A DNA stretch of 64,000 bases from Gammaproteobacteria bacterium (GTDB lineage: Bacteria > Pseudomonadota > Gammaproteobacteria > UBA1113), in the NCBI GenBank assembly GCA_020051015.1, contig JAGVJQ010000006.1, positions 2,133 to 66,132 on the forward strand, read 5' to 3'. Made by a program: the position numbers and the translations under genes. Positions 33,784 to 35,063 of this stretch are shown here, piece by piece. Position 1 is the first letter of the stretch; each line of letters begins with the position of its first letter. The notes beneath the pieces are model-generated. The model ran no database searches, was not told the origin of the DNA, and worked only from the letters and a program-made list of their open reading frames with translations.

Positions 33784-34022
33784 ATGAGGGATCGAGGTTG
33801 CGTTGTTTTTATGTAGCCCTCCATTAAGCTCGCATGAATGATTGCAACCCTCGATGGGAGATTGATCATTTATTTAAAAAGGTGTTGGTTTGCAAGCTTA
33901 ATGAGGGATCGTGGTGATGTCACGTATTGATCCCTCATTAGTTGCACAAGCATTTTTTACGATCTGTGAGCGGTAAAATAATGCGGATATTTAGAGTATC
34001 GTGTGCAACTAATAAGGGCTAC
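33784..34022. repeat. Upstream REP array of the REPtron (family E: GTAGCCCTCCATTAAGCTCGCA / TGCAAGCTTAATGAGGGATCG and GATCCCTCATTAGTTGCACA / TGTGCAACTAATAAGGGCTAC)
   Basis: Two inverted REP doublets. The array starts 2 nt after the stop of the Sel1/HExxH gene and ends 52 nt before the RAYT ATG. The same units recur at 34686-35063. Confidence 0.85.
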
Positions 34023-34074
34023 CAAATTGATGATTTGGTATAAAGATAATTATTCAATTATTAGGTAATTTAAT

Positions 34075-34641
34075 ATGGTTCATTATAGACGTTGCAAAAT
34101 TGATGGTGGTACATATTTTTTTACGGTTACTTTAAAAAACAGAAACTCAACTATTCTTGTTGATCATATCGATGATTTGAAAAAGGCTATAAAAGAAGCA
34201 AAATCTTTTTTGCCATTTACCATCAATGCGTTAGTAATTTTGCCAGAACATATCCATACTATTTGGCAATTGCCGGATAATGATCATGCCTATGCAACAA
34301 GATGGCGGATAATAAAAAGCAAATTTACAAAATCATTACTTAACAAAAATATTGTTATTAATAAAGATCGTCATGGTTTATACAACTTATGGCAACGACG
34401 TTTTTGGGAGCATGTTATACGTGATGAACAAGATTATATTAATCATGTAAATTACATTCATTTTAACCCGGTTAAACATCAATATGTAACATGTGCCAGA
34501 GATTGGCCGTATTCAACATTTCATGAGTATGTGCGTCAAGGTTTATTGAGTGAAAATTGGGGTTGTGGGGAAAAGACCGATATTGTGCAAACAAAAACAT
34601 TGATTAATTCGTCCTCATTTGGTGAAAGAAATGGGGTTTAA
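34075..34641 (+). CDS. REP-associated tyrosine transposase (RAYT; IS200/IS605-like Y1 HUH enzyme)
   Basis: 188 aa. HUH motif in LPEHIHTIW (H59-I-H61, nt 34249-34257), WQRRFWEH block, and catalytic-Tyr block VNYIHFNPVKH. Flanked on both sides by arrays of the same GTAG-headed palindromes. Confidence 0.88.
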   Translation: MVHYRRCKIDGGTYFFTVTLKNRNSTILVDHIDDLKKAIKEAKSFLPFTINALVILPEHIHTIWQLPDNDHAYATRWRIIKSKFTKSLLNKNIVINKDRHGLYNLWQRRFWEHVIRDEQDYINHVNYIHFNPVKHQYVTCARDWPYSTFHEYVRQGLLSENWGCGEKTDIVQTKTLINSSSFGERNGV

Positions 34642-34685
34642 TAAATTTTTTACATATATATTAGGAAAAGAACGAGAATTTTATC

Positions 34686-35063
34686 GTAGCCCTCCATTAA
34701 AGTTACATAAATAATTGTAATCCTCGGTGGATGATTGATCATTTATTTAACAAAGCGTTGGTTTGCAAGTCTAATGAGGAATCGAGTTAACGTTACGTAT
34801 TGATCCCTCATTAATTGCACAAAACGAGGGGGTTTATAATTTGTTGAATAACACCAACATGATGGATGTTTGAAATCCATTGTGCAACTAATAAGGGCTA
34901 CGTGAAATTGCGCAAGGTGAGGATATGAGTTAAATATCGTAGCCCTCCATTAAGCTTGCATGAATGATTGTAACCCTCGGTGGGAGATTGGTCATTGATT
35001 TAAAAAAATGTTTGTTTGCAAGCTTAATGAGGGATCGTGGTGATGTCACGTATTGATCCCTCA
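34686..35063. repeat. Downstream REP array of the REPtron (family E; two and a half doublets)
   Basis: GTAGCCCTCCATTAAAGTTACA...TGCAAGTCTAATGAGGAATCG (34686-34785). GATCCCTCATTAATTGCACA...TGTGCAACTAATAAGGGCTAC (34802-34901). GTAGCCCTCCATTAAGCTTGCA...TGCAAGCTTAATGAGGGATCG (34939-35036). A truncated GATCCCTCA ends 6 nt before the stop of the giant gene. Confidence 0.85.

Follow-up and report, generated by a model that had tools for sequence, protein, structure and literature searches.

The RAYT gene and its hairpins

The window analysed here, a term by which we mean the whole 64,000-nucleotide (64-kb) stretch of contig JAGVJQ010000006.1 (assembly GCA_020051015.1, positions 2,133 to 66,132), comes from an uncultured member of the Legionellales, and its central feature is a gene for a REP-associated tyrosine transposase (RAYT; REP, repetitive extragenic palindrome) set among inverted hairpin repeats. 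Gene and repeats together wholly fill the spacer between two convergent genes (33783-35068), of which the left one, on the plus strand, encodes an 804-amino-acid (aa) Sel1-repeat protein as recognised by Pfam (31368-33782), and the right one, on the minus strand, a 2197-aa protein without a Pfam domain (35069-41662, stop codon at 35069-35071). Read from left to right the array has the order T1+, T2-, RAYT, T1+, T2-, T1+, T2- (truncated), in which T1 and T2 denote two types of hairpin and the sign denotes the strand, and an orphan 3'-arm remnant lies at its left edge.

The RAYT gene (34075-34641, plus strand) is intact and encodes 188 aa. Its product matches the NCBIfam RAYT equivalog NF047646 with 176 bits (cutoff 80) over model positions 1-146 of 146, while the NCBIfam IS200 model yields 20.8 bits, below its cutoff of 55, and Pfam Y1_Tnp 22.2 bits, just below its cutoff of 23. 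The best solved relative is TnpAREP of E. coli (PDB 4ER8; E=1.9e-45, 53% identity over 153 aligned residues), the prototype of the group 2 RAYTs, a closeness expressed here as a similarity score. Hallmarks of RAYTs are a conserved Thr near the N-terminus and the motif NP(L/V)(R/K)xG beside the tyrosine (PMC2817692); when the window protein was aligned with 10 other RAYTs, including 4ER8, residues T17, H59-I-H61 and Y127 (in YIHFNPVKH) as well as NPVKH were invariant. The first-pass annotation had named the open reading frame (ORF) a RAYT on the strength of its HUH motif and tyrosine block, and this assignment holds: as judged from its sequence, the protein is a RAYT of the HUH/Y1 family, close to E. 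coli TnpAREP and with its catalytic residues intact. It is the only RAYT in the whole 64 kb, and TnpB was absent among the neighbouring ORFs scanned against Pfam.

Each complete hairpin is 95-101 nucleotides (nt) long and consists of GTAG at the 5' foot (5/5 hairpins), a stem of 17-19 bp, a loop of 53-58 nt and the tail ATCG or ATCA. Upstream of the gene lie a T1 at 33813-33911 (plus strand; DNA fold z=-2.5) and a T2 at 33928-34022 (minus strand; z=-5.5). Downstream, a decayed T1 at 34686-34784 (plus strand; 83% identical to the upstream unit; z=-0.5) is followed by an intact T2 with a loop of approximately 58 nt at 34801-34901 (minus strand; z=-4.9) and by a second T1 at 34939-35037 (plus strand; z=-4.7). 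All five hairpins match the pattern given below, and when folded as single-stranded DNA 4 of the 5 gave z values of -2.5 to -5.5 relative to shuffles. The orphan T1 3'-arm remnant at the left edge (ATGAGGGATCGAGGT; 33784-33798, plus strand; repeat family D2, an 11-mer match in blastn-short) begins 2 nt past the stop codon of the Sel1-repeat gene, while a truncated T2 arm at the right edge (TGATCCCTCA on the plus strand; 35054-35063, minus strand) stops 5 nt short of the stop codon of the convergent gene for the 2197-aa protein, and these remnants indicate that the array is cut off within a few bases of each neighbouring stop codon. All four arm sequences quoted in the first-pass annotation were found at the places given for them, and its coordinates for the repeats were right; its downstream count of two and a half doublets was not, as three complete hairpins and a truncated arm are present there.

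In the upstream T1, GTAG (33813-16) is followed by the 5' arm CCCTC(C)ATTAAGCTCGCA, a 56-nt loop, the 3' arm TGCAAGCTTAATGAGGG and the tail ATCG, and the bulged C of its stem is kept in 3/3 T1 copies. The upstream T2 reads, on the minus strand, GTAG-CCCTTATTAGTTGCACA, a 53-nt loop and TGTGCAACTAATGAGGG-ATCA, with a T.G at the fifth stem position in 2/2 copies. In these hairpins, which we refer to as family E, the basal stem of 9 bp (CCCTCATTA/TAATGAGGG) is conserved, the distal stem (8-10 bp) varies and the loop measures approximately 55 nt; no internal palindrome is present in the arms. The palindromes described earlier are real, though they take the form of long hairpins with 53-58 nt loops and not of short REPs. 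The family E pattern GTAGCCCTYN{0,1}ATTAN{60,85}TAATGAGG had 5 matches in the window, all of them within 33813-35032, where shuffles gave an expectation of 0.00.

The T1 copies are read on the top strand and the T2 copies on the bottom one, with tail-to-tail linkers of 16 nt and a head-to-head T2/T1 spacing of 37 nt, or of 663 nt across the ORF, and this alternation of tail-to-tail and head-to-head contacts places GTAG-footed hairpins on each strand. The GTAG head of the upstream T2 lies 52 nt before the RAYT start codon and the first downstream T1 begins 45 nt past the end of the gene. By repeat search and blastn-short the array contains a 144-nt unit three times (starts at 33806, 34679 and 34932) at 82-94% identity; over 125 nt the upstream unit (T1 plus linker) matches the last downstream unit at 93.6% identity, and each is 83% identical to the middle unit. 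The upstream T1 and the second downstream T1 thus form a direct repeat across the RAYT gene, and the 93.6% identity of the outer units is suggestive of recent copying or conversion from one side of the gene to the other.

The stems were further examined for covariation in a set of 14 related hairpins from 4 lineages, with a slid partner arm and 500 shuffles as controls. Stem cells were paired in 86% of cases, as compared to 31-40% in the slid controls; 10 of the 17 stem pairs change on both sides, and 0/500 shuffles reached the observed covariation score, which supports base pairing of the stems as read from the sequences. Across the lineages GTAG and the first nine stem pairs are constant and the distal stem covaries, while the loop keeps its length and not its sequence. 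A search of Rfam with 33000-36000 returned nothing meaningful, and a promoter/terminator scan revealed no enrichment and nothing inside the array. A site of the integration host factor (IHF) type (WATCAANNNNTTR), sought by eye in the T1 loop, was not found in any fitting form; IHF-type sites occur in E. coli in the linkers of bacterial interspersed mosaic elements (BIMEs).

Relatives of the enzyme and spread of the repeats

The closest homologue of the window RAYT (P0002, 73% identity) was found at loci L001-L003 in the JGI metagenomes 3300034880 and 3300034882, in a genomic context that differs from that of the window, namely downstream of tRNA genes. It is flanked by one hairpin per side, inverted and with GTAG outermost, and these hairpins share the head GTAGCCCTCATTA and the stem base with those of the window and have stems of 19 bp and loops of 57 nt; between the left and right stems there are three differences, each of which is compensated in the partner arm. 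The RAYTs at 59% (P0003) and 61% identity (P0005) are accompanied by GTAG repeats of other sequence, beginning GTAGCCCGTCAAC and GTAGCCYGGATG, respectively. Since the same hairpin occurs with the RAYT of 73% identity and different repeats occur at 59-61%, repeat and enzyme change together, which is a general trait of RAYTs (PMC2817692). We therefore infer that the repeats are cognate to the window RAYT, and the term as used in the first-pass annotation has this comparison of sequences in its support.

In L001 the right-hand hairpin (10499-10601) overlaps the last approximately 70 nt of the RAYT coding sequence, so that the C-terminal tail of the protein is encoded by repeat DNA there; the window RAYT has a homologous C-terminal tail (34570-34641), and the hairpin arm at that place is decayed. 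A 23-codon stretch resembling the RAYT N-terminus (52% identity, E=0.009) lies at 11195-11263 of L001, some 600 nt downstream of the intact RAYT, and may be a gene remnant.

The nearest relative of the host is Legionellales bacterium MAG 29 (GCA_013043985.1), whose SdhA is 89% identical, and this was the only genome in the genome scan with true matches to the family. Four such hairpins lie there on three contigs: a single hairpin (L004), a tail-to-tail doublet of a T1-like and a T2-like hairpin that is built like the window unit (L008) and a hairpin between genes read as rplI and dnaB (L013). No RAYT was present within the sequence fetched for L004, L008 and L013. Approximately 30 contigs from the metagenomes Ga0209781 and Ga0209364 (L014-L054; GC content 43-49%) contain palindromes of 85-105 nt that are nearly perfect, have the head GTAGCCCTCATTAGC and the basal stem in common with the family and are bordered by conserved TGCACAACTGTT / AACAGTT, and no RAYT was found on these contigs. 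In the same scans 7 of 10 genome matches and approximately 10 of 41 metagenome matches to the pattern were discarded as chance matches without complementary arms. The T1 loop of the window (33859-33872) and that of the T1-like hairpin of MAG 29 (L008, 3771-3784) have GAGATTGAT(C/T)ATTT in common, with 13/14 bases identical, at different positions in the loop.

A sister family, E', for which GTAGCCCRTATTA..TAATACGG is the counterpart of the family E pattern, lies at two intergenic sites of the window itself. One E' hairpin occupies the spacer between a fadB-like and an aldehyde dehydrogenase gene (27324-27429, plus strand; DNA fold z=-4.5) and reads GTAG-CCCGTATTA ... TAATACGGG-ATCG, and a tail-to-tail doublet lies at 43061-43154 (plus strand) and 43171-43274 (minus strand; DNA folds z=-0.5 and -1.3, respectively). 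The frame is that of family E: GTAG is followed by a basal stem of 9 bp and a long loop, the tail is GGG-ATCG and, in the doublet, the linker measures approximately 16 nt. The E' basal stem (CCCGTATTA/TAATACGGG) differs from that of family E in two adjacent base pairs, which are swapped on both sides. The distal stems of E' are largely decayed, and the 43.1-kb doublet keeps its basal stems only.

The MAG 29 loci and the E' sites together show that the hairpin architecture does disperse, both in this genome and in its nearest relative. They speak for dispersal and against repeats unique to the locus, an outcome that the first-pass annotation had named as contrary to its proposal. The earlier statement that family E occurs only at the RAYT locus is correct in the strict sense, but it overlooked the related E' sites, and the accompanying statement that all other REPs of the window belong to other families is in consequence valid only strictly. 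As to whether strict family E is itself dispersed in this genome, we regard the two answers as about evenly balanced.

Interpretation of the locus

We consider it highly probable that the locus is a REPtron, that is, a RAYT gene with its flanking REP/BIME sequences (PMC3733652), in which a RAYT with intact catalytic residues, present once in the 64 kb, lies inside a BIME-like array of cognate hairpins of approximately 100 nt, the size of a REP doublet forming a hairpin (REPIN), on a Legionellales chromosome. RAYTs are flanked by inverted REPs, about one third of them within BIMEs, and a BIME is defined by alternating and regularly spaced REPs (PMC2817692). At the present locus inverted REPs, of which at least two are required, adjoin the gene on both sides; the hairpins are regularly spaced and alternate in orientation, and each has the build of a REPIN, inverted arms of 17-19 nt with a spacer of 53-58 nt forming one long hairpin beside a RAYT. 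The first-pass annotation had recognised in this the established RAYT/REP organisation, and inverted GTAG-headed hairpins that alternate on both sides of the gene are indeed the published REPtron/BIME arrangement (PMC2817692, PMC3733652, PMC8266576).

In the systems studied so far, TnpAREP binds the REP in its folded, single-stranded form by way of GTAG and stem irregularities, uses its catalytic tyrosine to cut between a C and a T that lie a few bases to the 5' or 3' side, and is able to rejoin strands (PMC8266576, PMC3479197). By analogy with the systems of E. coli, Stenotrophomonas and Marinomonas, the window RAYT would bind GTAG and the hairpin foot in single-stranded DNA, cut a few bases outside the hairpin by means of Tyr127 and rejoin the strands, and by such cutting and rejoining hairpins would be copied or removed. 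The near-identical T1 copies that flank the gene could be products of local copying of this kind, or of gene conversion, and the loop would probably be a passive spacer. Constancy of GTAG and the nine basal pairs, together with a drifting distal stem and loop, is the pattern expected if the enzyme reads the hairpin foot. The direct repeats flanking the gene also imply that homologous recombination could delete the RAYT. A more far-reaching proposal, which we put forward only tentatively and rather doubt, is that this lineage uses 'long-loop' REPs, in which a constant GTAG, a 9-bp basal stem (switchable by paired substitutions, as between E and E') and a short tail, with a drifting distal stem and a loop of approximately 55 nt, form a minimal recognition module for a group-2-like RAYT, and that the locus is a currently active REPtron copying units across its own gene.

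A number of observations weigh against interpreting the locus as a REPtron. Strict family E has no copy in the surrounding 62.7 kb, whether sought with 17-mers at up to 3 mismatches, with whole units in blastn-short or with the pattern. The classic REP is 20-40 nt in size (PMC3733652), whereas the hairpins measure 95-101 nt and their loops exceed 50 nt. In the first downstream T1 both arms carry uncompensated mutations, in keeping with its z value of -0.5, and this flanking copy must be regarded as decayed. The last G of NP(L/V)(R/K)xG is replaced by Q in the window protein, and by R, H or A in its three nearest homologues. A consistent CT dinucleotide beside the hairpins, which would be the candidate cleavage site, was not found, and since conservation does not extend to the bases outside the hairpins, no cleavage dinucleotide can be named. 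Finally, the protein search returned no RAYT above 61% identity other than P0002, and so none of that closeness from MAG 29; the dispersed hairpins of MAG 29 may be orphans, or this metagenome-assembled genome may be incomplete.

The absence of strict copies elsewhere in the window bears most directly on the strongest alternative, to which we assign somewhat less than an even chance, namely that strict family E was amplified locally and never spread, the E' look-alikes belonging to another RAYT or being relics. The L001 relative, which has only the two flanking hairpins in 20.5 kb, fits this explanation, as do the REPs piled next to the RAYT in Marinomonas and other marine gammaproteobacteria (PMC2817692, PMC8266576) and the REPtrons known from species without a dispersed family (PMC3733652). 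However, MAG 29 carries the hairpin type at three separate RAYT-free loci, the sister family E' shows that the architecture disperses in this very genome, and a genome with tens of copies could well show none of them in as small a sample as 62.7 kb. In published usage such locus-confined cases are also termed REPtrons (PMC3733652, PMC2817692).

It is unlikely that the array is instead a pre-existing structural or regulatory element between convergent genes, such as a stabiliser of mRNA 3' ends or a terminator, into which the RAYT landed. The manner in which the array exactly fills the convergent spacer, being cut off at both stop codons, would be in agreement with this explanation, and secondary roles of this kind have been described for REPs (PMC3733652). 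The closest RAYT homologue, however, lies beside tRNA genes and has the same hairpin type in this different context, indicating that the repeats are tied to the RAYT gene and not to its neighbours; moreover, the hairpins are not followed by runs of T, and the terminator scan gave no match within the array.

Very improbable, in our assessment, is an autonomous insertion sequence of the IS200/IS605 type with the hairpins as its left and right ends. The weak Pfam Y1_Tnp match (22.2 bits) could be read in this way, and so could the L001 gene, bounded as it is by just two inverted hairpins in the manner of an insertion sequence. Yet the Pfam and NCBIfam IS200 scores are below their cutoffs where the RAYT model reaches 176 bits, in place of distinct left and right ends there is one and the same unit, directly repeated on the two sides and present in arrays, GTAG is a typical REP head, and there is one copy in 64 kb with no tnpB among the scanned neighbours. 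An ordinary IS200/IS605 TnpA with a companion tnpB, the outcome that the first-pass annotation had named as fatal to its proposal, was accordingly not what was found (IS200 20.8 bits; no TnpB among the neighbours). Integron attC sites, which are long imperfect hairpins by small ORFs, were rejected in view of the GTAG heads and the adjacent RAYT, with no search aimed at an integrase or at R'/R'' cores, and a miniature inverted-repeat transposable element with terminal inverted repeats was set aside because the data are better accounted for by the link to the RAYT.

Beyond families E and E', the window contains several other repeats, and the variety of repeat families in this genome is unusually large. 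A GTAG-headed REP family with GTAGGGGCGTATTGCATACGCCC occurs at 13970-14108, 57391-57527, 21178-21225, 47824-47871 and 61044-61091; two of these copies are inverted doublets of approximately 135 nt and REPIN-like, and no RAYT for this family lies in the window. A cluster of GTAGCCCGGGACGAAGTCCCGGG repeats with 13-nt sub-repeats, belonging to a GTAGCCC-headed REP family, is found at 54485-54655 and 55961-55988. A composite repeat ending in GTAGGGTGGGCTAAA, which includes two copies, 95% identical, of a 98-nt segment, occupies 690-745, 792-894, 21250-21352, 45737-45766 and 56792-56847. The C/G-rich palindrome CCCCTCCCCCGCACTTCGTGGGGGGAGGGG is present at four sites (17761-17801, 43288-43312, 50998-51038 and 63954-63978), and one of its copies directly adjoins the E' doublet at 43.3 kb. 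The sdhB-sucA spacer measures 72 nt and holds a REP in the window (61025-61096), as compared to 20 nt in MAG 29 (L058, 12518-12537), which is a presence/absence difference of a REP at an orthologous site.

With regard to the genes bordering the RAYT locus, the 2197-aa protein is rich in Ala, Glu, Lys and Gln, has a coiled-coil look as judged by eye and is encoded on a strongly AT-skewed stretch, and the Sel1-repeat protein has a tail rich in Pro, Ser and Tyr. Both resemble the secreted proteins of effector type found in Legionellales.

Comparison with known systems

In a limited full-text search of the literature, no paper combining Legionella with REP or RAYT was among the top matches. The locus opens no new question, but adds a clean RAYT/REP pair from an uncultured member of the Legionellales and provides natural variants with which to ask what a RAYT reads: GTAG and the basal stem are constant in four lineages, E' carries two compensatory swaps, and the loops are constant in length only. 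It is also of practical consequence, as metagenome assemblies break at arrays of such 100-nt hairpins, which may also be wrongly annotated as IS200 transposons.

Among the closest known counterparts is the REPtron of E. coli K-12 (yafM/TnpAREP with BIME-2, group 2, 4ER8), with which the locus shares a 53% identical protein with the same catalytic residues, GTAG-footed REPs of two types that alternate on both sides of the gene, and irregular stems, the bulged C of T1 and the T.G of T2 corresponding to the bulge in E. coli REPs. In contrast, E. coli REPs are 29-37 nt long with small loops, whereas the present hairpins are 95-101 nt long with loops of 53-58 nt; E. coli has hundreds of dispersed copies, whereas the strict family was seen, within the 64-kb window, at the locus only; and the window protein is longer than E. 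coli TnpAREP by an insertion of 12 aa and in its C-terminal tail. REPtron Ma of Marinomonas sp. MWYL1 (group 2; PMC8266576) resembles the locus in its two long REP types with irregular stems and large loops and in the concentration of its REPs beside the tnpAREP gene, but REPMa1 (42 nt) and REPMa2 (38 nt) are far shorter than the hairpins described here, and there is no sign that the repeat sequences are related.

In the REPIN-RAYT system of Pseudomonas fluorescens described by Bertels and Rainey (PMC3116915, PMC5581495), a hairpin of approximately 100 nt made up of two inverted arms of approximately 20 nt and a spacer likewise flanks a single-copy RAYT. The Pseudomonas RAYTs, however, belong to group 3 and the REP arms are themselves short palindromes, which the arms of the window hairpins are not, and population-level dispersal sets the Pseudomonas REPINs apart from the window hairpins, whose strict family was seen at one locus of the 64 kb. 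Members of the IS200/IS605 family (IS608, ISDra2) have in common with the present system the HUH/Y1 fold and hairpin substrates of single-stranded DNA, and differ from it in that the window protein scores below the profile cutoff, TnpB and distinct left and right ends are lacking, and the GTAG foot and arrays are RAYT traits. The arrangement, the enzyme family and the concentration of REPs at the locus have thus all been described before, and what distinguishes the present REPtron is a matter of degree, its hairpins of approximately 100 nt being two to three times longer than the group 2 REPs described so far and built from arms free of internal palindromes; it also belongs to another host clade.

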